Assembly (NCBI GenBank): GCA_043806015.1
Contig: JAZDHH010000007.1
Location: forward strand, 115,698-179,697
Source: Nanobdellota archaeon
GTDB lineage: Archaea; Nanobdellota; Nanobdellia; Woesearchaeales; JAHIVG01
Direction: 5' to 3'
Length of the DNA stretch: 64,000 bases
Positions 886 to 57,183 of this stretch are shown here, piece by piece (the first letter of the stretch is position 1; the number at the start of each line of letters is the position of its first letter). A model generated the notes under the pieces. It saw nothing but the letters and a program-made list of their open reading frames with translations. It ran no database searches and was not told the origin of the DNA. Made by a program: the position numbers and the translations under genes.

Positions 886-1596
886 ATGCTCCCCAAATCC
901 CAGGCGCACACGCTGCGCGAGAAGGACATGGCCTTCACGAGGAAGGCCCTCATCGATTCCGTGACACCGGACCAGCTCATCATCCAGGCCTTGTACAGCG
1001 CTGACGAGCTCGCCAAGGCGCTCAACGCGCTGGCCGGTCGCGTCCGTGGCTGGTACTGCCTCGCCCATCCTGAGCTCGAGCACGACGTAGAGGACAACGA
1101 GGCGTTCCTCAAGGCCCTGCTCGACGACCATAAGAAGAGCCAGATGGGCGCGACGCTCGCGGAGCACGACCTGAAAGAGGTCAGGGCGCTGGCCAAGGAC
1201 TGCCTGCAGCTCTTCGCCCGACTGAATTCGCTACAGCAGTACATCGAGCAGATGATGGCCAAGCACCTTCCCAACGCCACTATCATTGCCGGTGCCACCA
1301 TCGGCGCCAGGCTCCTCGCCCAGGCAGGCTCGCTCAAGAGCCTCGCCATGATGCCCGCGAACACCATCCAGCTACTCGGCGCTGAGAAAGCCCTGTTCCG
1401 GCACATGCGCAACAAGCGCGCGCTGCCGCCGAAGTACGGCATCCTGCATGAGCATCCGCTCATCCAGAAGTCCAGGGTGAAGGGAAAAACAGCCCGCATG
1501 ATCGCTGACAAGCTGGCTATCGCCGCCAAGGTCGACTATTTCAAGGGAGAGCCCATCGGGGCCAAGCTGCTCAAGGAGATCGAGGCGCGATCATGA
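886..1596 (+). CDS. Nop5/Nop56/58 family protein, NOP domain only (short form)
   Basis: The C-terminal NOP-domain motifs are present: ...IAGATIGARLLAQAGSLKSLAMMPANTIQLLGAEKALFRH...KYGILHEHPLIQ. The ORF track starts at a TTG at 841; the first in-frame ATG is at 886, about 55 nt downstream of a TATA-like tatttaaa. Its stop overlaps the fibrillarin start as ATGA at 1593. Confidence 0.75.
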   Translation: MLPKSQAHTLREKDMAFTRKALIDSVTPDQLIIQALYSADELAKALNALAGRVRGWYCLAHPELEHDVEDNEAFLKALLDDHKKSQMGATLAEHDLKEVRALAKDCLQLFARLNSLQQYIEQMMAKHLPNATIIAGATIGARLLAQAGSLKSLAMMPANTIQLLGAEKALFRHMRNKRALPPKYGILHEHPLIQKSRVKGKTARMIADKLAIAAKVDYFKGEPIGAKLLKEIEARS

Positions 1597-2516
1597 ACCA
1601 GCGGTTCGAAAGGGGAAGGAAGACGTACCATCGCGCTCATGAGTCCCGTCGTGTTCCGTTTTCGGCTCGGCCATCCTCACCGTCGGCTCGCCCACGCCAG
1701 GAGTCTGAATCCCGCAGCGGACGGCCAGAGAGGTTTGTGCCTCGCGACCGTGTTCCGAGTGGTGTTATGGCTTCACACAGAGCCACGCCTCCAGGCCCTG
1801 ACCGAGGGTGGCCTCGATCGAGCCCGAACTCCGCGATGCCGGAGCGGTCATTCCTCCGCCAGCGCTCCCAGGCCATCTTTCAGGACGGCCGCCGCCTTTT
1901 CACCAGAAGCATCATCCCTGAAGGCATCCAGCGGGAGGGCATGTGGCTCCGCGATTGGGACCCTCGGCACAGCAAGCTCGCTGCCGCTATCCTGAAGGGA
2001 GCGGAGCAGATCGGCCTGCGCGAGCATGACATTGTGTTGTACCTCGGTGCGTCCACAGGCACGACGGCTTCCCATGTCTCCGACATCGTCGGCAACCGCG
2101 GCTTCGTCTTCGCCCTGGACTGCGCCCCGCGAGTCATCCGAGACCTGGTCTTCGTCTGTGAAAGGCGGAAGAACATGACACCGATCCTTGCGGATGCTGC
2201 CCAGCCGGACACCTTTGCCGAGCGCGTCACCATGGTCGACTATGTGTACCAGGACATCGCCCAGCGCGACCAGGCGCGCATCTTTCTCCTGAACTGCAGC
2301 CGCTTCCTCGAGATAGGCGGCTTCGCCGCGCTCTGCGTCAAGGCCCGCTCCATCGACGTGGCGCGGCATCCGAGGGAGATCTTCCTCGAGACCCGCAAGC
2401 TGCTCGAGGAGCACCTCACCATCGTCGACAGCCGCGAGCTGGAGCCATTTGAGCGGGACCACTGCATCTTCTTCTGCAAGAAGACGAGAGCTTTCACGAT
2501 AGGAACCTTTATATAG
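1593..2516 (+). CDS. flpA: Fibrillarin (rRNA/tRNA 2'-O-methyltransferase) with an N-terminal extension of about 85 aa rich in Arg/Ser/Pro
   Basis: The core reads ...LFTRSIIPEGIQREGMWLRDWDPRHSKLAAAILKG...IVLYLGASTGTTASHVSDIVG...FALDCAPR...ILADAAQP. The ATG overlaps the nop5 stop. An alternative internal ATG lies at about 1836. Confidence 0.9.
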   Translation: MNQRFERGRKTYHRAHESRRVPFSARPSSPSARPRQESESRSGRPERFVPRDRVPSGVMASHRATPPGPDRGWPRSSPNSAMPERSFLRQRSQAIFQDGRRLFTRSIIPEGIQREGMWLRDWDPRHSKLAAAILKGAEQIGLREHDIVLYLGASTGTTASHVSDIVGNRGFVFALDCAPRVIRDLVFVCERRKNMTPILADAAQPDTFAERVTMVDYVYQDIAQRDQARIFLLNCSRFLEIGGFAALCVKARSIDVARHPREIFLETRKLLEEHLTIVDSRELEPFERDHCIFFCKKTRAFTIGTFI

Positions 2517-15465: not shown

Positions 15466-15523
15466 TTGAGAATATTTAAAGGTATTGGAACTGGATTTGA
15501 TGTTTTTGAGGGATGACGAAATG

Positions 15524-15671
15524 GCGCCCGCCTTCTCGGCGGTGGACGGTCAACGCTTTGCGTTGCCCTTCTCGCCACCCCGACGGGGGCGCAGTCACTC
15601 CATTACATTTCGTTCGGCGGTTGTAGCCGAGCTACAACCATCCCCCGGCTCGCCACGCCGAGGCGGGCGCC
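15524..15671. ncRNA. Candidate structured RNA or MITE-like element with a terminal helix of about 18 bp
   Basis: 5' GGCGCCCGCC-T-TCTCGGCG pairs with CGCCGAG-GCGGGCGCC at the 3' end. Internal perfect hairpins are GGTTGTAG-ccgag-CTACAACC and CAACGC-ttt-GCGTTG. It lies in a divergent 320-bp intergenic region. Confidence 0.3.
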
Positions 15672-15786
15672 TTTAGGATAGGGTCAAGATTCTGAAAAGG
15701 GTGGGGGTGGGGCCGGATGGCGGGATCATTATTTCTTTTCGCCGAACCATTTTTCCGAAATCCATTTAAGCAAGCGGGCCGCAGGA

Positions 15787-26698: not shown

Positions 26699-27289
26699 CT
26701 ATTCGTGTCGGCTCAGATACACATGATACCCGGCCTTCTTCGCGATTGTCGTCACATTGCCAAAACTGTCCTGCATCGCGGCCATCAGCGCCTTGCCGCC
26801 CTTGTTGTGCCGCACGACGATCTGCAGGCTGCCGCCGGCGGGCAGATGCCCCGTCGCCTCGGCGATGATGCGCAGGCAGATGTCCTTGCCTGCTGACTGC
26901 GGCGGGTTGCAGACGATCGCGGAGAACGAGCCGAGGCCCGTGTACAGGTCGCCGTCCTTCACCTCGACGTTCTGCGCCTTGTTGCGCCTCGCGTTCAGCT
27001 TCGCGCATGAAACCGCGCGCCGGTTCACGTCGACGAGGACGAAAGCCAGCGCAGGATGCGCCCTCGCGAGCGCGATCCCCACAGCGCCGTAGCCGCAGCC
27101 GAGGTCAAGGACGCTGCCCTGCTGCGGCAGCTCCGCCGCCTCGATGAGCAGCCTGCTGCCGGGGTCGATGCGCGTGAGAGAGAACATGCCGGAGTCAGTG
27201 ACGAAGGTGAGCCGGCTGCCGAGCAGCGTGGCCGAGATCTCCTGCTCCTTGCTCGCGCTCGTCTGCTTTTCCGAAAAGTAGTGGGGCAT
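26699..27289 (-). CDS. Class I SAM-dependent methyltransferase ('methyltransferase small domain', RsmC/METTL5-like)
   Basis: Starts MPHYFSE..., carries VLDLGCGYG (motif I) and CNPPQ (motif IV). The longer ORF in the track (ending at 27664) is probably an over-extension. Confidence 0.7.
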   Translation of the reverse strand: MPHYFSEKQTSASKEQEISATLLGSRLTFVTDSGMFSLTRIDPGSRLLIEAAELPQQGSVLDLGCGYGAVGIALARAHPALAFVLVDVNRRAVSCAKLNARRNKAQNVEVKDGDLYTGLGSFSAIVCNPPQSAGKDICLRIIAEATGHLPAGGSLQIVVRHNKGGKALMAAMQDSFGNVTTIAKKAGYHVYLSRHE

Positions 27290-27342
27290 GGGCAATCCAG
27301 GGAACAAGGGGTTTATTAGGCCTTCGAATTTAACAGAGATCC

Positions 27343-27437
27343 TGAGTTCCATCCCGCCACTGGCGCCGGCCGACCGGGGGCTGTCCCTTACGGGGTGGTC
27401 GGCAGGACAAACACGAAGCGTTTGGCCGTCGGCCGCC
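27343..27437. other. GC-rich nested-helix element, candidate structured RNA
   Basis: CCCGCCACT at the 5' end pairs with AGTGGCGGG at the 3' end. An inner GCCGACC/GGTCGGC helix encloses a small CCC-ttac-GGG hairpin. It lies between a T-rich terminator and the methyltransferase start codon. Confidence 0.2.
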
Positions 27438-27495
27438 ATTAGTGGCGGGATGAAAAAGAAGATAAAAAAAATTGAGAATGGGCAGGTCGAAATAT

Positions 27496-27711
27496 TCACT
27501 TCTTGAACTTGTACTCGAACACTTTCCTTTTGCCCGCCTTCTTGCTCTCGCGCTTCTTGATGCGGAACTGCACCTGCTTGCTCTCCCGGAGGCGCTTGAG
27601 GCTTGTGGTGACTGAGCCGATGGAGGCGCGCAGCCCGCGTGCTATCTCCTTCGAGAGGAACCACGTGATCTTGTGCTTCCGCAGAAAGCTGTAGACGTCC
27701 TGCTGTCCCAT
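27496..27711 (-). CDS. Small winged-helix DNA-binding protein
   Basis: 71-aa basic protein with an HTH-like core. A TATA (tttatatcc) lies upstream and a T8 tract downstream. Confidence 0.45.
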   Translation of the reverse strand: MGQQDVYSFLRKHKITWFLSKEIARGLRASIGSVTTSLKRLRESKQVQFRIKKRESKKAGKRKVFEYKFKK

Positions 27712-27762: not shown

Positions 27763-28443
27763 TCACGGCAGCATCACGCCGTACAGCACCAGGGCAAAAC
27801 GGTCAGCGGCCTTGACCAGGCCCTTCTGGTTGCCCTCGATGATGGCGCAGTTGCCCTGCAGCAGCACCCGCGGCTCAGGCGCGGTCCTGAAGTAGAACAC
27901 CGAGGTGTTGAGGTCGCAGCCGCCGATGGTGATGTTCGAGCACCCTCCATCGTCCGGCTTGGTGCAGGCCTGCTTCAGCCGCACGTTGAAAGCCTGCGTC
28001 AGGGTGACGCCGAGCTCGCCCCAGGCAAGGGTGACATAGCCGAGCTGCGGGTCGTCGGGGTCGAAGGTCATGGTGAAAGAGTCGGAGTAGCCGAAGTCTG
28101 GGCTGAGCTTGCCCTCGATGGCTACGTCAGAGAGGTTCCGGGGGCCATAGTGCAGCGGCACCGAGAACTGCTTGTTGCCACTCCTTATCTGGGTGAACCA
28201 CAGGCCATTCGCCTGCACGAAGGAGAATCCGTTGTAGATATAGCCCTGGTCCGGCTTGAGCTTGCCCTGCAGGTTGAGGGCGTGCAGCTCCTCGATAGTC
28301 TTGGGCGGCTCCTGCTTCGCGCGGAACAGGAAGAAGAGGGAGAAGAAGACGACGAGCATGATGGCGACGGCGATGCCGAGGTAGAGCCAGCTCCTGGCGC
28401 CCTCCTTGCCGTTCTCTGTATCCTCAGCTTCACGCGGTGGCAT
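27763..28443 (-). CDS. Single-pass membrane protein with a Cys-containing ectodomain, tandem paralog A
   Basis: N-terminal TM helix followed by an ectodomain. It is paralogous to the upstream gene, sharing segments such as ...CxxIxxG.QKGL..A.DR....Y.... Confidence 0.45.
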   Translation of the reverse strand: MPPREAEDTENGKEGARSWLYLGIAVAIMLVVFFSLFFLFRAKQEPPKTIEELHALNLQGKLKPDQGYIYNGFSFVQANGLWFTQIRSGNKQFSVPLHYGPRNLSDVAIEGKLSPDFGYSDSFTMTFDPDDPQLGYVTLAWGELGVTLTQAFNVRLKQACTKPDDGGCSNITIGGCDLNTSVFYFRTAPEPRVLLQGNCAIIEGNQKGLVKAADRFALVLYGVMLP

Positions 28444-29014
28444 TCAGGATCCCCAGGTATGTATAATAGAGCCTGTCCTTGGCGATTGCCAGGCCTTGCT
28501 TGTCCCCTTGGAGGATGATGCAGCCGTCCTGGGCGGTAACGCTGACGTTGCCGGTGTCCTTGAGGTAGAGCACGGGCATATAGGAGGTGGCGTTCTGGCA
28601 GGTGACTTCTGGAAGGAGCAGATTGGAGTTGTTCGTGACCCCCATGACCACATAGGTACCGAACAGGGCAGGCATTTCCTTGGACATCTCCAGGCGCAGG
28701 AGGTCGACGGTCGCGCCATCCTCGGCCCCGGGCTCGAAAGTGATCATGACAGCCCTGGCTTGCATCAGCTGGGCCATGACCTCTTTGTCAAGCGGAATCT
28801 CCTGGAGCTTGTCAGGATAGTAGCGGAACTTCAGCCAGGTGCTGTTCACCTGGGTGTAGATGCCGTCCTCCCGGACGGTGAAGCTGTAGCGGCCGTAGCG
28901 CTTCTTCTCGGTCATCTCGTCCGTGAAGTAGCCGGCGATGCTCGTCACCATGATGATGGCGATAGCGACCGTCAGCCAGACAATAGTCTTATTCTTCTTC
29001 TGGCGCCTGACCAT
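28430..29014 (-). CDS. Single-pass membrane protein, tandem paralog B
   Basis: The start was chosen at MVRRQKK because a TATA (tatttaaaccc) lies about 30 nt upstream. Confidence 0.45.
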   Translation of the reverse strand: MVRRQKKNKTIVWLTVAIAIIMVTSIAGYFTDEMTEKKRYGRYSFTVREDGIYTQVNSTWLKFRYYPDKLQEIPLDKEVMAQLMQARAVMITFEPGAEDGATVDLLRLEMSKEMPALFGTYVVMGVTNNSNLLLPEVTCQNATSYMPVLYLKDTGNVSVTAQDGCIILQGDKQGLAIAKDRLYYTYLGILNATA

Positions 29015-29155
29015 GGCTGCCGGACGTCCGGGGGGGTTTAAATAGTTTGCCATGGAATGCCACCGAAATGCGGCCATCGCAAGGCTTAAATACCTCCCCA
29101 TTCAACCTATCGATACCGATATATCGTAAAAGACATATCGATGACGATAGTTTCC

Positions 29156-29659
29156 ATGCACCAAACGCACCTCAAGCTCTACCTCCTGCACTGCCTGAGC
29201 GAGGCTCCGCTCTCGGGCTATGGCCTCATGGCCATGGTCCAGAGGCATTCCGGCAACAGGCCGAGCCCGGGCACCATCTATCCCCTCCTCGCCGAGCTGG
29301 AGAAGGAGGGGCTGATCACGGTGAAGGAGCAAGGAAAGCGGAGGATCAACACCGTCACGCCGGCCGGAAGGAAGGCCTTCCGCAGGGCACTGCTCGAGAA
29401 GAAAGCCCTTTTCGACCGCCTGATCAAGGACGTTCGCCTCGTCGGCCTACTCTGCCCTGACGACGAGACCGTCAACTATTTCATAGAATACATCCGCAAG
29501 ACCCAGGAGGGCAAGGATCCGCTGGGCAAATCAGCGCCGATCGTCTTCACGTTCCGCCACACGCTGCTCAGGACCATCCTCCGCGAGGACTTCCCGTGCA
29601 TCGCCCCCAAATTGAAGCGGATCCTCACAGACGCGACCGCGGAGCTGAACCGCCTATGA
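29156..29659 (+). CDS. PadR-family transcriptional regulator
   Basis: Contains ...SGYGL...SPGTIYPLLAELEKEGLI. Palindromes lie immediately upstream. Confidence 0.85.
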   Translation: MHQTHLKLYLLHCLSEAPLSGYGLMAMVQRHSGNRPSPGTIYPLLAELEKEGLITVKEQGKRRINTVTPAGRKAFRRALLEKKALFDRLIKDVRLVGLLCPDDETVNYFIEYIRKTQEGKDPLGKSAPIVFTFRHTLLRTILREDFPCIAPKLKRILTDATAELNRL

Positions 29660-30375
29660 AAGAGCACAAGAGCCAGGTCAACAAGACCATCATCGAGCTG
29701 CGCGACGTCTGGAAGATCTACCGCATGGGCGAGGTCGAGGTCACCGCCCTCGCAGGCCTCACCCTGAAGGTCGACCGCGGCGAGTTCGTCGCCATCATGG
29801 GGCCTTCCGGCAGCGGCAAGTCGACAGCCATGAACATGGTCGGCTGCCTGGACATCCCAACCAAGGGCGCCATCCTCCTTGACGGGCATGACATCTCGCG
29901 CATGTCCGAGAGCCAGCTCGCCCAGATCCGGGGCAAGAAGATCGGCTTCATCTTCCAGCAATTCAATCTCATCAATACCATGACCGCGATGGAGAACGTC
30001 ATGCTGCCCATGATGTTCCAAGGCCTTTCGCGAGGCGATCGGGAGGCCAGGGCCAAGGCCCTGCTCGAGCTGGTCGAGCTGCAGGACCGCATGCACCACC
30101 GGCCGACTGAGCTGTCAGGAGGCCAGCAGCAGCGCGTCGCCATCGCGCGCTCCCTCGCCAACGACCCGGAGCTCATCCTCGCTGACGAGCCGACCGGCAA
30201 CCTGGACTCGCGGACCGGCACCAATGTCCTCGAGTTCCTCAAGAAGCTCAACCGCGAGCAGAAGAAGACCATCGTCATGGTCACGCACGACAGCGAGCTC
30301 GCGAAGCACGCCGAGCGCATCGAATTCCTCAAAGACGGGAAAATAATCACCAAGCAGAGAGGTGGAACACCATGA
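29656..30375 (+). CDS. ABC transporter ATP-binding protein (MacB/LolD-type)
   Basis: Walker A motif GPSGSGKST, ABC signature LSGGQQQRVAIARSL and Walker B motif ILADEPTGNLD. Confidence 0.9.
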   Translation: MKEHKSQVNKTIIELRDVWKIYRMGEVEVTALAGLTLKVDRGEFVAIMGPSGSGKSTAMNMVGCLDIPTKGAILLDGHDISRMSESQLAQIRGKKIGFIFQQFNLINTMTAMENVMLPMMFQGLSRGDREARAKALLELVELQDRMHHRPTELSGGQQQRVAIARSLANDPELILADEPTGNLDSRTGTNVLEFLKKLNREQKKTIVMVTHDSELAKHAERIEFLKDGKIITKQRGGTP

Positions 30376-31628
30376 GACCGACCATCGTATACATCCTGGC
30401 GCTCCTGTTGCTGGCCGCGCCAGCCCTTGCCGCGACGCTGCCAGGCGTTGACATCACCGCTACGTTCCTGAACCAGGATCCTGATCCTGTCGGGCCGAAC
30501 CGCTACGTCGACCTCCGCTGGCGGATCGAGAACCTCGGCTCTGACGCCGCGCCAAACATCGACGTGGAGATCCTGCCGCAGTACCCCTTCTCCCTCGAGC
30601 CTGGCGAGAGCGGGGTGAAGGCCATCGGCACGATGCTCGGCCGCCAGATGGGCGACCTCGGTGTCGTGGTGAAATACCGTCTCTATGTGGACTCCAATGC
30701 CGTCCCAGGGACGGACACCATCAAGCTCCGCTACCGCACCAACGGCGGCAACTGGGAGGAATTCCCGGAATTCGCGGTGAGCGTGGAATCGCAGGAGTCC
30801 ATCCTCGCCATCGACCAGGTCGAGATGACGCCGCAGAGCGTCGAGCCTGGCCAGACGGTCCAGGTGAGCATCAAGGTGAGGAACATCGCCGACGCCTTGC
30901 TGCGCAACATAAAGGTCAACCTCGATATCAAGGCCCTGCTCCAGACTGCCACCAGCATCACCTATGAGGAGCTGCCCTTCACGCCCGTGGATTCCACGAA
31001 TGAGAAGGTGGTCAAGAGCCTCAAGGCCGGCGAGCAGACCGCGGTGGTCTTCTCACTCATGGTCGATCCCACCGCGTCGCCCAAGGTCTACAAGCTGCCG
31101 ATCGTGGTGCATTACACCGACGACTATGGCCGGAACACCTCGCGCACCTTCTACACCAGCATGGTGGTCACCAGCAAGCCTTCCCTCGCCATCCAGCTCG
31201 AGAAGGCAGACCTGCTCACCGCCAACAGCAAGGGCAAGGTGATCGTCAAGTTCATCAACAAGGGCCTGAACCGGGTCAAGTTCCTCGACGCCACGATCGG
31301 CACGCAGAGCAACTACGACCTGCTCTCCGCCAAGGAGAGCTACATCGGCAACATCGACTCGGACGACTATGAGACGCTCGAGATCGAGCTCTTCGTAAAG
31401 CCGGACGGCGACAAGCTCGTCATCCCGGTCGCGGTGAGCTATATGGACGAGAACAATAATGCCTACCAGCAGAGCAAGGACATCGAGGTCCGCCTCTACA
31501 CCGCGGAGGAGATCGGGAAGCTCGGGCTCAAGCCGAAAAGCAGCCTGCCCGTCGTGCTTATCGTCATCGCCCTGGTGGTGGTCGGCATCATCATCTTCCG
31601 TCTGACCCGGCGGAAAAAGCGCTCATGA
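30372..31628 (+). CDS. Secreted, C-terminally TM-anchored beta-rich protein (COG1361/DUF11-like ABC-associated component)
   Basis: Signal peptide, then an ectodomain of about 380 aa, then a C-terminal TM helix followed by RRKKRS. Confidence 0.55.
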   Translation: MRPTIVYILALLLLAAPALAATLPGVDITATFLNQDPDPVGPNRYVDLRWRIENLGSDAAPNIDVEILPQYPFSLEPGESGVKAIGTMLGRQMGDLGVVVKYRLYVDSNAVPGTDTIKLRYRTNGGNWEEFPEFAVSVESQESILAIDQVEMTPQSVEPGQTVQVSIKVRNIADALLRNIKVNLDIKALLQTATSITYEELPFTPVDSTNEKVVKSLKAGEQTAVVFSLMVDPTASPKVYKLPIVVHYTDDYGRNTSRTFYTSMVVTSKPSLAIQLEKADLLTANSKGKVIVKFINKGLNRVKFLDATIGTQSNYDLLSAKESYIGNIDSDDYETLEIELFVKPDGDKLVIPVAVSYMDENNNAYQQSKDIEVRLYTAEEIGKLGLKPKSSLPVVLIVIALVVVGIIIFRLTRRKKRS

Positions 31629-32845
31629 TCAGGGATTTCTTTCTTTTTTCCATCCAGAACCTCAGGGAGCGCAAGGTCCGCTCCTGGCTGACCATGATAG
31701 GCGTCTTCATCGGCATCACCGCCGTGGTAGCCATCATCAGCCTCGGCCAGGGTCTACAGGTGGCCATCGACGAGCAGTTCGCGACGCTCGGCACTGACAA
31801 GATATTCATCACCCCGGGGAGCGATTTCTTCAGCGGCTCCAGCACGTCCGTGAAGCTCACCGAGAAGGATCGCAAGGTGATAGAGCGGGTTCCTGGTGTC
31901 AGGGACACGCTCGCCTTCTCCTACAAGAGCGGCAAGGTCGATTACAAGGACCAGGAAGCGTATGTCCTTGTCATGGGCGTTTCGCTTGACCAGGGTGAAG
32001 CGGTCTGGAAGGACACCTGGGGCAAGGATGTCGTGGAAGGGCGGCTTTTGGAAAAGGGGGATAGCACGAAAGTGTACTTAACCTATGATTATACAAATGA
32101 CAAGAAGGTCTTCGACCACCGGGTGAAGCTCTATGACAATGTAGTGGTCAACGGCCAGCAGTTCCAGGTGGTCGGCTTCCAGAAGCAGGTCGGCAACTCG
32201 GGGGATGATCAGACAGCTTATCTCACGGCCGGCGCCTACCAGCGCGTCTTCGGGGAGAGGATGGAGGACGACTACAAGCAGCTTCTCGTCCGCACCCAGG
32301 AGGGCGTCGATCCCGCCGCTGTGGCGGAAAGGCTCCGCAAGGACCTCCGCGACTACCGCGGCCTCAAGGAAGGCGACGAGGACTTCACGCTCCAGACAGC
32401 GGAGCAGCTCATGGATAGCTTCAACGCCATCTTCCTGATCGTGCAGGTGGTCATCATCGGCATCGCCGCCATCTCGCTCGTCGTCGGCGGCATCGGAATC
32501 ATGAACACCATGTACACGGCCGTGCTGCAGCGCACCCGGGAGATCGGCGTCATGAAGGCAATCGGAGCCACGAATCGGAATATCATGACCCTGTTCCTCA
32601 TCGAGTCCGGGATGCTCGGCCTGGTGGGCGGCATCATCGGCGTCGCCTTCGGCTTGGGCATCGCGAAGCTGACCGAGGTCGGTGGCACGCTCACCATCGG
32701 CACACCCTACCTGCGCGCCTGGTGGAGCTGGTCCCTGATCCTTGGAGCCCTTGCCTTCGGCTTCCTGGTCGGCGCCTTGTCCGGGCTCCTCCCGGCCATC
32801 CAGGCGTCGCGGCAGCAGCCGGTCGAAGCCCTGAGGTATGAGTGA
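31625..32845 (+). CDS. ABC transporter permease, FtsX/MacB family
   Basis: An N-terminal TM helix, a large periplasmic loop and a C-terminal FtsX 3-TM block (...GGIGIMNTMYTAVLQRTREIGVMKAIGAT...). Confidence 0.85.
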   Translation: MIRDFFLFSIQNLRERKVRSWLTMIGVFIGITAVVAIISLGQGLQVAIDEQFATLGTDKIFITPGSDFFSGSSTSVKLTEKDRKVIERVPGVRDTLAFSYKSGKVDYKDQEAYVLVMGVSLDQGEAVWKDTWGKDVVEGRLLEKGDSTKVYLTYDYTNDKKVFDHRVKLYDNVVVNGQQFQVVGFQKQVGNSGDDQTAYLTAGAYQRVFGERMEDDYKQLLVRTQEGVDPAAVAERLRKDLRDYRGLKEGDEDFTLQTAEQLMDSFNAIFLIVQVVIIGIAAISLVVGGIGIMNTMYTAVLQRTREIGVMKAIGATNRNIMTLFLIESGMLGLVGGIIGVAFGLGIAKLTEVGGTLTIGTPYLRAWWSWSLILGALAFGFLVGALSGLLPAIQASRQQPVEALRYE

Positions 32846-34080
32846 TGATCCGCGACTATCTCCAGGTGGCCATGCAGAGCCTGATGCACCGGAGGCTCCG
32901 CTCCTGGCTGACCATGATCGGCATCTTCATCGGCATCGCTGCCGTCGTGTCCCTCATCTCGCTCGGCCAGGGCATGCAGTACGCGATTGAGAACCAGTTC
33001 TTCCAGCTCGGGGCGGACAAGCTCACCATCCAGACGAAGGGCGTCGCTACCGGCCCGCCGGGGAGCAATTCGGGCGTCACCCTCGGGAAAGGCGACCTCC
33101 AGGTCGTGCGCCGTGCCACTGGAGTGAAGGTCGCGACCGGAAGGCTCATCGAATCGATCTCTGTCAAGTTCAATGACAAGACGCGCTTCCTCTACCTCGC
33201 CTCCTTGCCCCAGGACTCCGCGGAGCGGGCCATGGTGACGCAGGTGGCCAACGTCGAGGAGGGAGATATAGCCTACGGCAGGTCCTTGCGCCCCGATGAC
33301 CAGCGGAAGGTCATCATGAGCGTGGATTACTACAACGACCCGAAGTTCGGCGGAAAGGCGCTGCGCGTGGGGGACAAGATCCTGGTCAACGACCAGCCTG
33401 TCGATGTCGTCGGCTTCTTCAAGAAGACAGGCAACCCCTTTGTGGACATGTCCTTCGTGATGAACGAGGAACCGCTGCGCAAGCTCCTCAACATCCCTGA
33501 TCGCATCGGCTTGATCGTCGCGCAGGTCGAGCCTGGAGCGGACATGGACGTCGTCGCCCAGGCCGTGGAGAAGGACCTCAGGAGATACCGGGGCGTCAAG
33601 GAGGGCAAGGAGGACTTCGAGGTCCGGAGCGCCAAAGAGACGCTCGACACCTTCAAGACCGTCCTCAACATCGTCACCGCCGTGCTCATCGGCATCGCTT
33701 CCATCTCGCTCATCGTCGGCGGCATCGGCATCATGAACACCATGTACACGTCGGTGCTCGAGCGCACCAAGGAGATCGGCATCATGAAGGCCATCGGCGC
33801 AACGAACAGGGACATCCTGCTCATCTTCCTCTTCGAGTCCGGCCTGCTGGGGATGGCCGGCGGCGCGATCGGCATCGCCATCGGCATCGGCCTCAGCAAG
33901 GCGGTGGAGGTCATCGCCCGGGCGCAGCTCGGCACCAGCCTCATCCAGGCGCATTTCCCGCTCTACCTTGTCCTCGGGTCATTGGCTTTTTCCTTCGGTA
34001 TCGGGACGCTCGCCGGCGTGCTTCCCGCTCGGCAGGCCGCGAACCTGCAGCCGGTCCAGGCCTTGCGATCGACGAAGTAG
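32842..34080 (+). CDS. ABC transporter permease, FtsX/MacB family (second copy)
   Basis: Paralogous to the permease at 31625-32845. Confidence 0.85.
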   Translation: MMIRDYLQVAMQSLMHRRLRSWLTMIGIFIGIAAVVSLISLGQGMQYAIENQFFQLGADKLTIQTKGVATGPPGSNSGVTLGKGDLQVVRRATGVKVATGRLIESISVKFNDKTRFLYLASLPQDSAERAMVTQVANVEEGDIAYGRSLRPDDQRKVIMSVDYYNDPKFGGKALRVGDKILVNDQPVDVVGFFKKTGNPFVDMSFVMNEEPLRKLLNIPDRIGLIVAQVEPGADMDVVAQAVEKDLRRYRGVKEGKEDFEVRSAKETLDTFKTVLNIVTAVLIGIASISLIVGGIGIMNTMYTSVLERTKEIGIMKAIGATNRDILLIFLFESGLLGMAGGAIGIAIGIGLSKAVEVIARAQLGTSLIQAHFPLYLVLGSLAFSFGIGTLAGVLPARQAANLQPVQALRSTK

Positions 34081-47232: not shown

Positions 47233-50200
47233 CTAAGAAGACACTGAGACCGAAATGGTCTCAGCATCCTCATAATCATCATTCCAAGCTCGGGCAGTAA
47301 CATTATAGTATCCGTCAACAGAATAATTCGTGACCACGTACACGAGCCTTGTGCTGTTGGCAGGCAGGTCAAAATCAGTTATGCCGGTGTCCAAGGTGAC
47401 GCGCAAAAAAGGATGCTGGGTGTCATAATAAGACTCCTTGGAACGCGTCGAGACATAATCACCGGCGTTATCGGCATTCGACTCCGTAACGACATAAATC
47501 GAGAGATTGTTGGTGCCAAGCTCAACCTCAGCCTTCAGCATGTCAACGACCGAAAAGTTCAACGCCGACGGCGCGTCGCCGTCATCATACCTCAACCAAG
47601 AACCATAACCGGACAAAGAATATCCTACGGGATATAGCGGCCTGTTGTCCCACGTCACCGACGACTCATTCCATTCCGAACCGCTGATATTATACTCGGG
47701 GAAAGGATAAACCCTGTAAGGCGTCAGATTAACCCACTCACCCGCCTCCAAATTGTCCTCATAGGCATACAAGAAAAGCTCAGCAGCCACGATATCATCT
47801 CCATCATCAACAAAATCATAAAGGCTGGAAATGTCAAACTTGTACATGCCCCTTCGATCATTACCGCTATACGCCCCGAAATGCGCATAAGGCTCGCTGC
47901 CAAAATTGCCGCTCGAATCCGCCGACTTCACCATCGCGTCATCAGACGGCAAAAAAGTCAAGTACTTCGAGACAAGCTTCTCATCAGTATCCAGGCTCCA
48001 CTTCACGCCATCAACACTCTCATTGCCATCATTAACAATCCTGAACGAAAAAACGACCCGTTCGTTCCCCCTATTTTCCACTTCCCACAAATCGCGGACA
48101 TCAGGAAGATTGGCATAAAAATAACCCGACATGTTCACCAAAGTGCCATTGGAATGATGGACCCAGAAAGTGAAATTATGCCTGCCTGAATCTGTAGGGA
48201 CGAACCCATTATAATAGATATCAGTATTAGAAGGATTGGATTCCAAATTCAGCAAGGTGCTATAGTTCCTCCTGGAAGAATCAGGAGGCGAACTCACCTC
48301 GACGACAACCTCATCAACTCTCGCCGGACAAGGCCAAGAAGGCGGCGAGACATTGACAGAGAGATTCACTATTCCCCCCTCAAGATCGCCGTGATGAGAC
48401 GCATTGACACTATTGATCACCGCAGAACGGCTCTTATTCAGGCAGACATAGGAATAATAAACCTCGCGGTCAGCGTGCGTCCAGATATAATCCAGCGTTG
48501 TATTGGGATACTCGATCATCGCAGGATTGCTGTCATCCGCGGCATGATTTGTCAACCTCGAATGATCCCAATAAGTATTAACACCATCATTAGGATTTGT
48601 CGAATTTGAATGCACAATCTCATTGTTCCCATATGCCTCATCCTGGCCATCCGCATAATACATCAGATGGATATTGCTAGCCCGATCATAAGAAGCCTGA
48701 ACACGCCAAGCATCATAATCCCAATCTTCCTTGTATAAGTAAATCGCGCCACCTGGGCGCCAAGTTTCGCCGTAATCAGACGAATTGGTAAACCAGATAT
48801 AGTATCCATGGTTGGGGTTCATTTTTTTGTGCCATGCAACAACAAGGTGGTCGGGAGAATTTGGATCGATCGCCAAAGATGGCCGATAAGCGTCAGTAGC
48901 GGTAGTAACATCCTCCGAAATCGCTTCCTCATCCGACCACACATTCCCCTCATCTTCAGATTTGATGAACATTATCCGGTGATGGCCTCCAGATTGCAAA
49001 TAATCATCCACATCTTCATAGGCTGCATATAACAAAAACGCATCCCTGTCAGCAGCGATTGTGGGCGCATAATCCGAAAAGACATCATCAGTCAAGTTTT
49101 CCCACTCGTGATACCAATGAGTACCATGAGACTGGGACCCCCTGAATAGGATCTCAGCGCTATCAGTCTCCAAAGGCGGGTAAGGCCACCGGGCGATGAC
49201 ACTCATCATAACACTAGATACTGACAATGAAGGCCACCAGAGATTAGAGCTGTCGTTAGTCCTATTCCAATCGCTATAACCGTCCTCCCAATCACTGTGA
49301 TACGTACCATTCAGGGTGCAGGCCACCAGGAGGTCAACGCCATTTGTGCCTAAAGCCGGAAAAAGACAAACCTGCGTTTCAGGAGCAATGTCAGGATCCT
49401 CAATCTTCTGCACAGTCCAGCTGCCGCCATTATCAAGCGAATAGGCATGGAAACCCTCAGCACCAATGTCGTCAAATCCCCCCTTGGAACAGTTGGAAAA
49501 AACCGCGTGCACATTCCCATTACCATCCCGGACAATGCTCCGCTTGGCGTTATAATTGGTCATGTTATCACAATAAGTATAACTGGTATAAAGCTCCCTC
49601 ACCTTCGACTTCAGATAGATGTCCAGAAAAGGCCTCTGATCCCTATAATCAGTTTCCTTCGAGCGCGTCTTCACAAGATCAGTGGAACTCATACTCCCCG
49701 CGGCCGTGAAGGCCTTCACAAGAACAGACAGGTTGTCATCACCATCACCGACCTCATCTTTCACCATGTCAGTAACATTAAAACTCATCCAAAAAGGCGT
49801 TTGCCCATCAGCAGTGTCCCCGCCAGCTATAACCCAGCTATCCTCAGCAACACCATTGTATTCGTGATCAGAATCATCAGGCCTATTATTCCAGGTCACC
49901 GACGAATCATCCCACTCCAAATCGCTGACATTATAATCCGGATAAGAATACACGTGATGCGCATCCAAACGGATAGCCTCATCATCCGCCAAAGTGTCAT
50001 CATAAGCCCACAAATTGAGCTCGGCATACACGACATCGTCCTCATCAGCGCCGAAAATGCCATCCACCTGCGCCAGGTCAAACTTATACATGCCAAAATA
50101 CCTTGACGAGTCAGCTGTAACAGAGCAATAATTAATATAAGCCTCCCCACCATAATTTACGTAAGGAGCATCCTCATAAAGCAGACTATCATCCATGACC

Positions 50201-50925
50201 TCCCCGGCAAAAGAACCGTATTCGGCAAGCTGCAGGCGATGCCTCGCGACCGTGGGATCATCAACAGTGACAAGCAGATAAGGTTTGCCGGACATGCCAG
50301 TTTCCGATGAACGCGTTTTCACATAATTATCATAATCCGGGCTCCCGGAATCAGTCACGGCCTTGACAAGGAAACTGACATTACGGTCATCTTGAAGCAT
50401 TTCCTCAACAACCGCGCCAGTAACAGTGAAATTCATCCACTGCCTGCCATCACCATTACTATAAACCCAGCTGTCCAAAACACTGCTGTGCTCAGACTCA
50501 AAATCAGGGCGGTTAAGCCAATTGACACGAATCCCATTCCACTCAACACCATCAACAGAATAATCAGGATAAGAATACACGTGATACGCATTCAACTCGA
50601 CAGCCTCGCCGATGTCCAAAGTCTCATCATAAGCATAGATAAAAAGAACAGCCTCCGTCACATCAGCCGGATCAGCATCCAGCCCTGTCAAATCAAACTT
50701 GTACATGCCGTAACGCTGATGTTCCTCAGCAGGACAATAATGGATAAAGGCTGACTCGTAAAAACTGGTGCCAGGCTCATCCTCCTTCAGCATGGTATCA
50801 TCCAAAACATCGTCACGCAGCGGAATAGAATACACCGCACCACAAACAGAGCCAACACCGGACAGCAGGAAAACAACCAGCACAAAAAACATCAGAAACC
50901 TATAGAGAACCCTAGACGTCGCCAT
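47233..50925 (-). CDS. Secreted 1230-aa mosaic protein with three DNRLRE/CBM96-like modules and BNR (Asp-box) repeats
   Basis: Signal peptide. Three repeats of ...GMYKFD(L/I)...(V/I)(N/T)W.NRP.... BNR motifs SLDNGGSW, SEDEGNVW and SSDYGETW. Confidence 0.6.
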   Translation of the reverse strand: MATSRVLYRFLMFFVLVVFLLSGVGSVCGAVYSIPLRDDVLDDTMLKEDEPGTSFYESAFIHYCPAEEHQRYGMYKFDLTGLDADPADVTEAVLFIYAYDETLDIGEAVELNAYHVYSYPDYSVDGVEWNGIRVNWLNRPDFESEHSSVLDSWVYSNGDGRQWMNFTVTGAVVEEMLQDDRNVSFLVKAVTDSGSPDYDNYVKTRSSETGMSGKPYLLVTVDDPTVARHRLQLAEYGSFAGEVMDDSLLYEDAPYVNYGGEAYINYCSVTADSSRYFGMYKFDLAQVDGIFGADEDDVVYAELNLWAYDDTLADDEAIRLDAHHVYSYPDYNVSDLEWDDSSVTWNNRPDDSDHEYNGVAEDSWVIAGGDTADGQTPFWMSFNVTDMVKDEVGDGDDNLSVLVKAFTAAGSMSSTDLVKTRSKETDYRDQRPFLDIYLKSKVRELYTSYTYCDNMTNYNAKRSIVRDGNGNVHAVFSNCSKGGFDDIGAEGFHAYSLDNGGSWTVQKIEDPDIAPETQVCLFPALGTNGVDLLVACTLNGTYHSDWEDGYSDWNRTNDSSNLWWPSLSVSSVMMSVIARWPYPPLETDSAEILFRGSQSHGTHWYHEWENLTDDVFSDYAPTIAADRDAFLLYAAYEDVDDYLQSGGHHRIMFIKSEDEGNVWSDEEAISEDVTTATDAYRPSLAIDPNSPDHLVVAWHKKMNPNHGYYIWFTNSSDYGETWRPGGAIYLYKEDWDYDAWRVQASYDRASNIHLMYYADGQDEAYGNNEIVHSNSTNPNDGVNTYWDHSRLTNHAADDSNPAMIEYPNTTLDYIWTHADREVYYSYVCLNKSRSAVINSVNASHHGDLEGGIVNLSVNVSPPSWPCPARVDEVVVEVSSPPDSSRRNYSTLLNLESNPSNTDIYYNGFVPTDSGRHNFTFWVHHSNGTLVNMSGYFYANLPDVRDLWEVENRGNERVVFSFRIVNDGNESVDGVKWSLDTDEKLVSKYLTFLPSDDAMVKSADSSGNFGSEPYAHFGAYSGNDRRGMYKFDISSLYDFVDDGDDIVAAELFLYAYEDNLEAGEWVNLTPYRVYPFPEYNISGSEWNESSVTWDNRPLYPVGYSLSGYGSWLRYDDGDAPSALNFSVVDMLKAEVELGTNNLSIYVVTESNADNAGDYVSTRSKESYYDTQHPFLRVTLDTGITDFDLPANSTRLVYVVTNYSVDGYYNVTARAWNDDYEDAETISVSVSS

Positions 50926-51031
50926 GATACCATCCTCCCCCCCTTTTTTTATAAAAAACCAAGAGAGGTTTCATCATTCCGCAAGTAATATAAAAACCTT
51001 TCGAAAAAAGAACAAGGGAAAAAAAAAGGAA

Positions 51032-51589
51032 TCACCTATACAAAGCCTTGATCGCGCCCCAACTGTCGGACTGCAGGGGAGTGGACCCGGTCACAGACTG
51101 CAACTCAACCCTCAGGCCGCCGTGCAGCAACGCGTCAATGATCCGGACGAGGTCTTCCGGGATCACTTCATCACTATTCACGCCGTTGAGGTAAACGCTT
51201 TGCACAGGAACAGGGCTGTTGCCGAATGCCCCGGTCTCCAGGATTTTCTGTTCCGATGGCTGGTTCACGCTTACATGGCTAAAAGGATAGGCCATCAGCC
51301 CGGGGTTGAGGTCCTGCCTCAGCTGGACCCCCAAGCATTCCACGAGGCCGCCTGCGCCTTGGTCCCTGAACAGGTACGTGAAGCCGCTGTTGTGCTCGAC
51401 GGGCTCCAGCCCATATGCACCGAGCGCTTCATAGAGGCTCGCAAGCAGATCATGCTGCTCCATCATGGCCCCTGCGACTGAAGTTGTGGGCTTCACCCCA
51501 GAACCTTCAACTGCTGCAGCACCTACAGGCGCCGCTGCCAAAAGTCCGGTCAAAGCCAAATGTTTCATCATAGGTTTCATTCTGACCAA
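51032..51589 (-). CDS. Small secreted protein
   Basis: Signal peptide, 185 aa. Its start overlaps the stop of the upstream paralog. Confidence 0.4.
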   Translation of the reverse strand: MVRMKPMMKHLALTGLLAAAPVGAAAVEGSGVKPTTSVAGAMMEQHDLLASLYEALGAYGLEPVEHNSGFTYLFRDQGAGGLVECLGVQLRQDLNPGLMAYPFSHVSVNQPSEQKILETGAFGNSPVPVQSVYLNGVNSDEVIPEDLVRIIDALLHGGLRVELQSVTGSTPLQSDSWGAIKALYR

Positions 51590-52656
51590 CCTCCCTCTAC
51601 CATCGAAGTCAAGATCTTCCCGCCGCCACCGGACGGCGGAATGACTAGGCCTCCCACATGAACATGCAGATCCCTGATGTTGTTGCTCTCATCATACTCG
51701 TCGATGAGATCCTCATAGTCAACGAAGACCTCTGGAAAGTAATCGCCCGAGGCAGGATAGCTCCAGAGCTCGTACACCGTCATGAAATCGCCAGCAGCCA
51801 GGGAAATCGGCTGGTTATTGTACAGATAGGCGGGCTCACCCTGCGTGGCGACCTTGTAATAGATGTCCTCGAGGTCTTCATCGCCGAGGTTGCTGAGCCT
51901 GAACTGGAACAGGATGTCATCGCCGGCAACAGGGTTTTGGGGATAGACCGCGCTGAAATCGGTCACCGCAACATCGCTGCCAGAGCCCTGATAATGTATC
52001 CGGAGTAATGGGCGCTGGTCATCGTGGATGGACTCCTTCGAGCGGGTCTTCAAATAGTCGCCGGAGCTGTGGCCGCTGATCTGATCGGTGACTATGAAGA
52101 CAGACAGGTTGTGGTCGCCCTCCATGAACTCTGTCTTGACCATGTCGGTGACATCGAAAGGAAGCCAGACATCCGGAGAGTTATTCCCGCAGAACACAGT
52201 GGAATCCGAAGGGGCCGTGTCATATTCTGAAGAGGACGCCGGCCTGTTGCCCCACGTCACCGAATACTCGTCCCACTCGAGGCCGCCGATCTGATAGGCC
52301 GGATAGGAATAGATGTGATGGGAGGACATGGTGACGCACTCGTCATCCCTGTCCAAGGTCTCATAGTAGGCATACAGGTTAAGCTCGGCGCTGATGATGT
52401 CATCGGCATTGCCAATCGCGGTGTACAGTTGGGACAGGTCGAATTTGAAAAGCGCCTGCCTCTGCGAATAAAAAGCGGAGCAGAAATGGACAAAGGTCTC
52501 ATGCCCGTAATTGGCGTCGGGATACCTCGCCCATAGCTGCGCATCGTCCAGGTTCTCTGTGTCAGCGTCCTGCAGCACCAGCGTCCCGGCAACAGCGATG
52601 CCTGAACAGGACAGCAACGCCGCCACCATCACCACAAACACCGCGTAAGCATTCAT
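51577..52656 (-). CDS. Secreted DNRLRE-like plus CARDB-domain surface protein, paralog 1
   Basis: Signal peptide, a YKFDLSQLY...VTWGNRP...KTRSKESIHDDQRPLL module, a CARDB-like stretch (...SNLG...E.DESNN...) and a C-terminal GGGGKILTSMVEGGWSE tail. Confidence 0.6.
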   Translation of the reverse strand: MNAYAVFVVMVAALLSCSGIAVAGTLVLQDADTENLDDAQLWARYPDANYGHETFVHFCSAFYSQRQALFKFDLSQLYTAIGNADDIISAELNLYAYYETLDRDDECVTMSSHHIYSYPAYQIGGLEWDEYSVTWGNRPASSSEYDTAPSDSTVFCGNNSPDVWLPFDVTDMVKTEFMEGDHNLSVFIVTDQISGHSSGDYLKTRSKESIHDDQRPLLRIHYQGSGSDVAVTDFSAVYPQNPVAGDDILFQFRLSNLGDEDLEDIYYKVATQGEPAYLYNNQPISLAAGDFMTVYELWSYPASGDYFPEVFVDYEDLIDEYDESNNIRDLHVHVGGLVIPPSGGGGKILTSMVEGGWSE

Positions 52657-53720
52657 TCGGAACCACCTTCCATCATGGTAAACAATTTTCCGCCGTGATG
52701 GTGGAAAGGCAGGACGCTCCCGACCTGCACCATCAGATTCCGGTAGTTGTTCGACTCATTGAACTCGGCAATGGTGTCCCCGTAGTCCGCGACAACCTCC
52801 GGATAAAAGATCCCCGGGTTGGAATAGCGCCAATTCTCATAGACGATGATGAAATCGCCCGCATCCAAAGAGATCGGCTGGGAATTATAAAGATGGGGAG
52901 GCTCGCCGCGGGTGGCTACCCGGTAATACACGTTTTCAAGGTCTTCAGTGCCAAGGTTGCTGAGCCTGAACTCGAAAAGGATGTTATTGCCCACGACAGG
53001 ATTGCTGGGATACACCTTGCTGAAATCGGTCACCGCAACATCATTGCCGCCGGCCTCATAGGTGATGAGCAGAAAGGGCCGCACGTCGGAAAAATAGGAT
53101 TCCTTTGACCGAACCCTCAAAAGGTCGTCAGGGCTCGTGCCTTCGATTTCAGATGTCATCATGTAGATGGAGACGTTCATGTCACCCTCCGAGAATTCCT
53201 GCCTCACCATTCCGGTCACGTTGAACGGCAGCCACTCATTCAATGCCATGCCGTCGCAAAAGAGGCCTGTGTCTTCAGCAGCGGGATTGTACTCAGAAGG
53301 CAGGACTGGCCGGTTCCCCCATGTCACGGAAAGCTCGTCCCACTCGAGGCCCTCGACCTGGTATGAGGGGTAGGAGTAGGCGTGGTGGGCGGACATCTCG
53401 ACGCACTCATTCTCTTCGAAAGTCTCCTCGTATGCGTAGAGGTAAAGCTCGGCGCTGCCTATCTGGAAGGCATCGTCTATGAGGGGATAAAGCTGTGACA
53501 GGTCGAACTTGTACATGCCGAACCTCTGATAGTCCGGGGAAGAGCTGAAGAGGATATACGGCTCAGTGCCGTAGTTCTCATCAGGGGTCCACTCCCTGAG
53601 CATTGTGTCAGCAAAGGTCTCTGTGTCGGCGTCCTGCAGGGCCAGGGTGTAGGTGAAAGCCAACGCTGGAGCGGTGCACACCATGAGGACAATCATGAAT
53701 AAGACAGACTTTTCCGTCAT
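52653..53720 (-). CDS. Secreted DNRLRE-like plus CARDB-domain surface protein, paralog 2
   Basis: Same architecture as paralog 1, with a HHGGKLFTMMEGGSE tail. Confidence 0.6.
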   Translation of the reverse strand: MTEKSVLFMIVLMVCTAPALAFTYTLALQDADTETFADTMLREWTPDENYGTEPYILFSSSPDYQRFGMYKFDLSQLYPLIDDAFQIGSAELYLYAYEETFEENECVEMSAHHAYSYPSYQVEGLEWDELSVTWGNRPVLPSEYNPAAEDTGLFCDGMALNEWLPFNVTGMVRQEFSEGDMNVSIYMMTSEIEGTSPDDLLRVRSKESYFSDVRPFLLITYEAGGNDVAVTDFSKVYPSNPVVGNNILFEFRLSNLGTEDLENVYYRVATRGEPPHLYNSQPISLDAGDFIIVYENWRYSNPGIFYPEVVADYGDTIAEFNESNNYRNLMVQVGSVLPFHHHGGKLFTMMEGGSE

Positions 53721-54766: not shown

Positions 54767-54840
54767 TGTATCAACCCGATTATACCTATTAAGTGATGAA
54801 AAAGTAAGACTCCTTAATAAATGTTTTGTTGAAGAAGGTA

Positions 54841-54935
54841 GCGAGATGGGTAATGCGTGAGGTTTCGCATAAAAATAGGTTCTGACCGGAAGTTTTTGGT
54901 GCCTTTTGCAGGTCATCCATAGTCAAAAAGCGGTG
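54841..54935 (-). repeat. Copy B of the inverted repeat of about 95 bp
   Basis: Reverse complement of the 41821-41915 element. It lies in the upstream leader of paralog 3. Confidence 0.8.
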
Positions 54936-56619: not shown

Positions 56620-56978
56620 AAGGCTTTATCCGGACCTTGGAAGCGTTCATTGCCATAGCTTTCAGCTTCATGGCCTTGGTGTATCTTTTCCCAGCGACCC
56701 AGGAATCCGCCAAAGAAGTCCCCTCCGTGCTGCCCAACCTGCTCCACGACAGCCAATTCCGCGCGTGTGTCATCGCTGACAACAAGACCTGCGTCGAGGG
56801 CATCGTGAGGCCGCTCCTGCCTTCCTCAGAGAGTTTCCTCGTCAACCTCACGACTGACGCTTCGGTGGCTCCGGCAGGGCTACCTGACTCGAGGGTCGAC
56901 ACAGAAACTCTTTTCATCGCGGGCAATGACTCGCTGCTCCAGCCGAGGATTGTCCGCCTCTATCGCTGGGTCAGTTAG
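56613..56978 (+). CDS. Archaeal type IV pilin-like protein
   Basis: N-terminal MVKGFIRTLEAFIAIAFSFMALVYLF resembles a class III signal peptide. Its ATG overlaps the upstream stop codon. Confidence 0.5.
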   Translation: MVKGFIRTLEAFIAIAFSFMALVYLFPATQESAKEVPSVLPNLLHDSQFRACVIADNKTCVEGIVRPLLPSSESFLVNLTTDASVAPAGLPDSRVDTETLFIAGNDSLLQPRIVRLYRWVS

Positions 56979-57183
56979 GGGCCCGCATGAGGAGGGTTCT
57001 GTGGTTAAGCAGCCATCCCGTGCCGCTCGGCAACGGGCGTGCAACCCTGAACCCCGGCACTGCAAGACTGCAGAAGAAGCGTGATCATCGGGACGGAAAA
57101 AAATAAATTTTCCAATTTTTACTTCTTTATAAGAGTAACAATTCTGCACAAAGCATAAATAGTCCCTTGCGCACGCCAAAAGC

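Follow-up and report, generated by a model that had tools for sequence, protein, structure and literature searches.

What is the GC-rich palindromic sequence that lies in the 320-bp spacer between two divergent genes of this Nanobdellota archaeon? The whole stretch of DNA that we analyzed, referred to here as the window, is 64 kb long, and a first-pass annotation of it, made from the sequence alone, had read this spacer sequence as either a candidate structured noncoding RNA or a MITE-like relic. It had named the neighbors correctly: the spacer of 320 bp separates an ABC1/UbiB kinase gene (minus strand) from a gene for a YdjM-family protein (plus strand), and the two are divergent. The kinase is identical (100%) to that in a metagenome-assembled genome labeled "Nanoarchaeota archaeon," and the next best relative shares 53% identity. 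We found that the genome holds at least two homologous copies of the sequence, in opposite orientation, together with one arm fragment. On balance, we consider the copy in the kinase/YdjM spacer, called E1, to be probably a member of a small, lineage-specific family of noncoding, GC-rich foldback repeats that is nonautonomous and of the MITE or REPIN kind.

E1 is a foldback element of 149 nt (15523..15671) with a GC content of 69%, recognized by the z-score of its fold and by a score of 189.6 bits against its own model. It is given here on the plus strand, which is the orientation homologous to the minus strand of the second copy and says nothing about which strand is functional. The element described earlier as starting at 15524 is real, but its true start is one base earlier, at 15523. 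Its 5′ arm (15523..15541, plus strand) consists of GGCGCCCGCC, a TTC bulge, and TCGGCG and pairs with 15656-15671, where an inverted-repeat search placed the 3′ arm (15656..15671, plus strand), CGCCGA followed by GGCGGGCGCC. Read from the sequence, the outermost helix is perfect over 10 bp (GGCGCCCGCC at 15523-15532 with GGCGGGCGCC at 15662-15671), and inward of the 3-nt bulge TTC (15533-35), TCGGCG (15536-41) pairs with CGCCGA (15656-61) over another 6 bp. The arms are thus complementary on recount, but the closing helix totals 16 bp with a bulge rather than the 18-bp terminal helix or 19-bp terminal inverted repeat first proposed, in which G15662 had been counted twice. The longest gapless inverted repeat of the arms is 14 nt at 93%.

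Inside the closing helix, GGTGG (15541-45) pairs with CCACC (15575-79) and encloses CAACGC-ttt-GCGTTG (15551-65), exactly as had been noticed at first reading. With an imperfect extension, the latter makes up hairpin A (15545..15571, plus strand), which is kept in the second copy. Hairpin B, GGTTGTAGC-cga-GCTACAACC (15619..15639, plus strand), lies within a 48-nt segment that is private to E1 and is missing from the second copy in the model alignment. It had been reported as a perfect 8-bp hairpin, GGTTGTAG with CTACAACC; it is indeed perfect, but it has 9 bp and a loop of 3 nt (15619-27/15631-39). The two internal hairpins are unrelated to each other. All 36 bp of the named E1 helices are Watson-Crick pairs, with no G-U, and every loop measures 3 nt. 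The 5′ arm has three alternative 3′ partners, at 15585-92, 15662-71, and 15716-24 (GATGGCGGG).

The exact 149-nt E1 folds with −75.8 kcal/mol on the plus strand (z = −4.72) and with −80.2 kcal/mol on the minus strand (z = −4.00), values that none of 200 dinucleotide shuffles equaled on either strand, and its closing helix is present in both the minimum-energy and the centroid structures. Among 6385 stretches of 149 nt across the 64 kb, E1 ranked 5th on the minus strand and 134th on the plus strand after correction for GC content. E1 is among the most structured spots of the window, without being unique. The nested complementarity exceeds chance in the fold, which beats the shuffles, but inverted-repeat length alone is ordinary: the window contains about 40 inverted repeats of at least 10 nt within 250 nt, so the 10 to 14 nt of E1 is a common length. 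When E1 was folded with 300 nt of context, the closing helix was lost and z rose to −0.9, because the 5′ arm has other nearby partners. The most structured minus-strand stretch in the minimum-free-energy scan was 29000-29250, where a 223-aa gene (28430-29101, minus strand) and a PadR-family regulator gene (29141-29659, plus strand) diverge, their 5′ ends 39 nt apart; its palindromes include CGATATATCG and ATCGATA and may be a PadR operator. Further top outliers in the GC-corrected folding-energy scans were at 56850-57040, 62833, 6303, and 38613.

The search for a known RNA family, which had been proposed as a check on the structured-RNA reading, matched no family. Rfam gave zero matches at the gathering threshold in the whole 64 kb, and in E-value mode it returned only noise at both loci, the best being dauA with 21.4 bits (threshold, 45) besides miRNA-hairpin noise; ARAGORN found zero tRNAs. 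The exclusion of tRNA, 5S rRNA, SRP RNA, RNase P RNA, and C/D and H/ACA sRNAs made from the sequence alone is borne out by these blank searches and by motifs that are wrong on inspection. Strings such as CCGAAC-like, GAUGA, and CUGA motifs exist in the wrong structural context for 5S, SRP, RNase P, or C/D RNAs. As for H/ACA RNA, the sole free ACA (15605-07) lies 13 nt past the stem instead of adjoining it, the internal loops are one-sided (0 + 13 nt and 3 + 1 nt) and form no two-sided pseudouridylation pocket, and inspection revealed neither a K-turn nor tandem G-A motifs. The window does encode a fibrillarin (1593-2516, plus strand; 307 aa, with a long N-terminal extension and the domain only at residues 113-297) and an RtcB RNA ligase (57911-59326, plus strand), from which C/D-box sRNAs and RNA splicing or circularization would be expected; even so, the searches of the 64 kb brought up neither a C/D sRNA nor a tRNA.

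A scan of genome contigs with the 19-mer of the 5′ arm gave at least 120 chance matches in high-GC bacteria (actinobacteria), with only 21 to 29 nt in common, and no DPANN contig was among the matches listed. In a scan of metagenome contigs with the 21-mer of hairpin B, 29 of 30 contigs belonged to one unrelated transposon-end repeat family whose flanks are unlike E1, and we regard this match as a coincidence. In those contigs (L122-L151; JGI Ga0307509-Ga0307517), an abundant transposon-like repeat ending in CTACAACCttggcacgagta has the exact 21-mer GGTTGTAGCCGAGCTACAACC as its subterminal hairpin; this repeat often occurs as inverted pairs 400 to 700 nt apart and also at contig ends, in DNA of 41 to 54% GC. 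Pattern scans of viral contigs and blastn against phage and plasmid sequences gave no match. CRISPR, integron attC, retron, replication origin, and dif site were also considered and rejected, as there is no array, no cassettes, no reverse transcriptase, and no orc1 context.

A further observation came from the search for additional copies, which, it had been suggested, would favor a MITE. Blastn was blank, and both blastn and nhmmer with E1 against the window missed the second copy, yet a covariance model and Smith-Waterman alignment found it about 12 kb away. This copy, E2 (27350..27452, minus strand), is 103 nt long with a GC content of 70%; its outer helix is perfect over 12 bp, and its 28-nt arms, 82% complementary, make up the longest inverted repeat in the window. 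The model built from E1 only, run unfiltered on the window, detected E2 at 29.7 bits (E of about 0.002), and a model of the two sequences gave it 107.5 bits. In a structure-free Smith-Waterman comparison of the first 70 nt of E1 with 6390 stretches of 120 nt on both strands, E2 was the best non-self match, with a score of 42 against 18.2 ± 3.5 (maximum, 33) in GC-rich stretches, and the global alignment of E1 and E2 was bettered by none of 300 shuffles. The fold of E2 has a z-score of −4.3 on both strands. E2 corresponds to E1 minus the 48-nt segment with hairpin B, the length difference being 46 nt, and the two copies share about 70% of their sequence in opposite orientation.

Outside the elements, the flanks of E1 and E2 show no significant likeness, and the left flanks differ (..GTATTGG at E1, ..TTTCGA at E2). 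The neighbors of E2 are a 71-aa gene and a gene for an RsmC-like methyltransferase, whose start at 27289 (196 aa) equals NCBI protein P0124. Searched with the model of both copies, neither the window nor about 74 kb of DNA from relatives yielded a third one, and there are no other arm-like sequence pairs in the window; the two copies and the fragment known to us all come from the 64 kb searched.

Comparison with relatives showed both spacers to be much shorter elsewhere. The divergent YdjM/ABC1 pair is kept in relatives, with a spacer of 78 bp in L001, 90 bp in L154 and L155, and 67 bp in L160 against 320 bp here. The spacer that holds E2 measures 206 bp here against 44 bp in L158, the methyltransferase of which is 83% identical, and 4 bp in L159 and L160. 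Relative to L001, about 250 extra nt (15489..15738, without assigned strand) lie in the kinase/YdjM spacer between the shared GTATTGG and TCGCCG(G)AACC, boundaries that are approximate at a protein identity of 53% with L001. At the other locus, 162 nt (27329..27490, minus strand) between the 71-aa gene and the methyltransferase gene are missing from L158, with clean alignment on both sides that covers the stop-codon region and the CTAATAAACC TATA box. The element is absent from the same spacer in syntenic relatives, which favors a repeat. Since two unrelated loci gained homologous DNA that is missing in relatives, it follows that the sequence was copied within the lineage.

A duplication of the target site is doubtful. 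TTCGA occurs on either side of the 158-nt E2 insert, at 27487-91 and 27324-28, but outer parts of 38 and 21 nt separate these repeats from the arms of E2, and E1 has no counterpart of those parts. Neither copy has a direct repeat immediately beside its arms, and no target duplication was found at E1.

The two copies have diverged without losing their pairing. The long terminal stem and hairpin A are complementary in both copies despite about 30% divergence. In an alignment fitted to the model, which leans towards structure, 91.5% of the cells are paired, compared with 34 to 52% in slid controls, a level reached by 1 of 500 shuffles, and nine pairs, in helices 1, 2, and 3, have both sides changed. 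In the register based on sequence, in which CCCGCC/GGCGGG is identical, the outer three pairs are doubly changed (GGCG/CGCC versus CAT/ATG), and helices 2 and 3 contain one double change each. Hairpin A went from CAACGC/GCGTTG in E1 to CAAACGC-ttc-GTGTTTG in E2, with one base pair inserted and one G-C replaced by G-U; the G-U gained amounts to one pair in each orientation. Homologous strands are the more stable ones in the two copies: minus in E1 and plus in E2. The label "relic" is therefore not quite apt, as pairing has been actively preserved between E1 and E2, and because of this preservation a young family of RNA genes must still be counted as a rival explanation. The termini bound by a transposase are usually the most conserved part of an element. 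Here, the outermost 3 to 4 bp differ yet stay complementary, which looks more like selection on the stem.

E1 is a rearranged, longer version of the element, with a 48-nt insert that carries hairpin B, a repeat with a 78-nt period, and a neighboring solo arm. The direct-repeat search showed that unit A (15536..15592, plus strand), which consists of TCGGCGGT, 22 unrelated nt, and a 27-nt block, recurs in exact register 78 nt downstream as unit B (15614..15670, plus strand). Accordingly, TCGGCGGT occurs twice in E1 (15536-43 and 15614-21), and the 27-nt blocks (15566-92 and 15644-70) are identical at 22 of 27 positions, which none of 1000 shuffles reached. The 22-nt middles of the two units are dissimilar, each holding its own perfect hairpin, and the ends of both 27-nt blocks are complementary to the 5′ arm of E1. 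TRF reported no tandem array at E1, because the middle of the 78-nt repeat is unrelated. About 40 nt past E1 lies GGCCGGATGGCGGGATC (15709..15727, plus strand), which resembles the 3′ end of E2, GGCCGG(CGCCAG)TGGCGGGATG. The 9-mer TGGCGGGAT has three sites in the 64 kb, namely, both E2 arms and 15718-26, 47 nt downstream of E1; judged by this likeness, the last of these sites appears to be a lone fragment of an arm.

The stretch from E1 to the solo arm includes a G-tract, GGGTGGGGGTGGGG (15698-15711), whose complement occurs in two C-rich stretches of E1, CCACCCC (15575-81) and CCCCC (15642-46), and which, read on the plus strand, has the form of a G-quadruplex motif. Other direct repeats of the window belong to tandem paralogues: three to five CBM96/CARDB-domain surface-type proteins beside a 1230-aa open reading frame (ORF) at 47500-54900, with repeats about 1060 nt apart, and three ORFs of about 410 aa at 30370-34080, with direct repeats about 1220 to 1230 nt apart.

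The arrangement of promoters bears on whether E1 could belong to a transcript of its neighbors. In about 15 upstream regions of genes that head a unit (13400-63600), a TATA box of the form (A/C)TTTAAATA ends about 22 nt (21 to 26 nt) before the ATG, which implies that most mRNAs are leaderless. By this rule, the kinase would start at 15450 rather than at 15465, with TTTAAATA on the minus strand at 15480-15473, and the YdjM-family gene would start at 15787 or 15793, probably the latter, with ATTTAAGC at 15764-71. Both promoters lie between E1 and their own gene, and E1 is therefore predicted to be outside either mRNA. Several TATA boxes are nearly palindromic and could fire in both directions.

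E1 is also unlikely to encode a protein. The 51-aa ORF that crosses it (ATG at 15521 to TAG at 15676) has a codon log-likelihood of −0.56 bits per codon, against +0.41 in genes, and its GC content hardly varies with codon position (0.71/0.67/0.65, against 0.56/0.40/0.75 in genes). The ORF, at lengths of 51 to 63 aa, has no Pfam match, and phmmer against 1.8 billion proteins gave three low-complexity matches to long proteins and no homologue. GC-rich, stop-free palindromes give rise to spurious ORFs, such as one of 321 aa (26699-27664, minus strand) through E2 and one of 63 aa (15485-15676, plus strand) across E1, and they also inflate screens for structured RNA.

The foldback-repeat reading can be compared with several known systems. 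MITEs are multicopy elements with terminal inverted repeats and target-site duplications (PMC10969869). Like them, E1 and E2 are small (103 to 149 nt), noncoding, and intergenic in AT-rich sites, have terminal inverted repeats that fold into a long hairpin (10 + 6 bp in E1, a 12-bp helix in E2), occur more than once per genome (at least two copies in 64 kb), and are present in one genome and absent from related ones. Unlike MITEs, they have no clear target-site duplication adjoining the inverted repeats, their outermost arm bases differ, and the window yielded neither a parent insertion sequence nor a transposase. Of the two readings first offered, the MITE-like one thus gains from the second copy and the empty sites, whereas neither a clear target duplication beside the inverted repeats nor, in the window, a partner transposase was found. 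No transposase, integrase, RAYT, or TnpB domain was found in about 46 ORFs of the window that were checked.

REPINs and BIMEs are doublets of REP sequences in bacteria that form hairpins and are mobilized by RAYT tyrosine transposases. To our knowledge, they have been described in bacteria but not in DPANN archaea. REPINs consist of inverted arms and a spacer that form hairpins, compensatory changes are common in them, and they occur in clustered arrangements (PMC3116915). E1 and E2 likewise have GC-rich inverted arms and a spacer and form a hairpin of about 100 nt that is kept by compensatory changes, and E1 resembles one of the clusters in which tandem forms and solo remnants are found (PMC3116915). 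The differences are that the arms of REPINs are nearly invariant 16-mers, whereas those of the two copies compared here share only CCCGCC/GGCGGG; that REPINs reach tens to hundreds of copies, against two known here; and that no RAYT or IS200-like gene was found among the ORFs scanned in the window.

The IS200/IS605-derived PATEs and orphan omega-RNA modules are a third possible counterpart, being nonautonomous, with hairpins near their ends and no obligatory target duplication. In archaea, such elements can reportedly be transcribed into structured small RNAs. PATEs differ from E1 and E2 in lacking terminal inverted repeats that pair end to end and in inserting beside a fixed target of 4 to 5 nt, whereas the left flanks of E1 and E2 differ; furthermore, no TnpA or TnpB was found in the window, and Rfam gave no match to related motifs.

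If E1 and E2 are foldback repeats, an enzyme encoded elsewhere in the genome would move them in trans, recognizing either the paired arms or the hairpin that these form in single-stranded DNA. The maintained pairing might then exist because the enzyme would recognize these structures. Copies would survive only in AT-rich spacers beside TATA boxes, where genes are spared. Features common in repeat DNA are the internal duplication, the solo arm, stems built wholly of Watson-Crick pairs with loops of 3 nt, and TTCGA to either side of the E2 insert. As the copies are about 70% identical, any mobility cannot be recent.

The main rival would make E1 and E2 paralogs that each encode a lineage-specific, structured small RNA of about 100 to 150 nt, closed by the terminal helix and transcribed either independently or from the nearly palindromic TATA boxes. 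We regard this as possible but rather improbable. It would account for the very stable folds at both loci, for the compensatory changes, which include the outermost base pairs and one G-U pair, for a GC content of 69 to 70% in AT-rich spacers of a genome with 57% GC (the value for the window), and for the homology of the more stable strand in the two copies; in the shared orientation, moreover, an AATATTT box lies about 36 to 42 nt upstream, at 15472-81 for E1 and, for E2, around the stop codon of the 71-aa gene. The overall plan also recalls archaeal 5S, SRP, and double-hairpin H/ACA RNAs, which measure 100 to 150 nt and have paired 5′ and 3′ ends and several internal hairpins, but E1 differs from these: it matched no covariance model, has neither an ACA box beside a stem nor a pseudouridylation pocket nor a K-turn, and is not conserved in relatives. 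Against such genes stand the blank Rfam search and the absence of the sequence from both syntenic spacers, even at a protein identity of 83%, and from 74 kb of relatives' DNA. Unlike the genes of this window, neither copy has a consensus TATA box about 22 nt before a helix end. The 36 bp of the named E1 helices contain no G-U, and the loops are of 3 nt instead of being stable tetraloops; a length difference of 46 nt, an internal duplication, and a solo arm would likewise be unusual in a functional RNA. Nor would heat explain a GC-rich RNA, since the growth temperature estimated from the proteome is about 39°C. A bolder version of either reading, in which the element would be either a new kind of self-propagating gene for a structured small RNA in this DPANN archaeon or the first archaeal hairpin replicator comparable to REPIN/RAYT systems, seems unlikely to us. 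Under either form, function would center on the terminal stem and hairpin A, transcription would come from hijacked, nearly palindromic TATA boxes, and the three 3′ partners available to the one 5′ arm of E1 would act as a structural switch.

That E1 acts in cis on its neighbors, be it through alternative pairings in a 5′ leader or attenuator or through several palindromic protein-binding sites that control the divergent kinase and YdjM promoters, appears very improbable. Its position between two promoters would suit such a role, and the three partners of the 5′ arm mean that mutually exclusive structures exist. However, each flanking gene has its own TATA box about 22 nt before the ATG on the gene side of E1, with leaderless mRNAs predicted, E2 adjoins unrelated genes (those for the 71-aa protein and the methyltransferase), and relatives run the same gene pairs without the element. 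The spacing of the CGCC...GGCG palindrome also varies (2, 3, and 5 nt), which is ill suited to one protein site. We give hardly any credence to the view that E1 is a chance structure in neutral spacer DNA without a history as a unit, or a short coding gene of 51 aa. An inverted repeat of 10 to 14 nt is by itself common in the window, the plus-strand fold ranks only 134th of 6385, and an ATG with GAGG 8 nt before it stands right at the 5′ arm; but the homologous second copy, the internal repeat (0 of 1000 shuffles), and the fold (0 of 200) argue against chance, and codon usage like that of an off-frame sequence, the lack of a Pfam match, and three low-complexity protein matches argue against a gene. 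We therefore return to the nonautonomous foldback repeat as the reading that we favor.

DPANN archaea have small, gene-dense genomes, and we know of few descriptions of repeats or noncoding RNAs in them. As it stands, the finding is modest and restricted to one lineage. A hairpin repeat that preserves its pairing in two promoter-proximal spacers would show that miniature mobile DNA persists in reduced genomes, where such elements may reshape promoter and terminator regions; if transcribed, E1 and E2 would constitute a new family of archaeal small RNAs.
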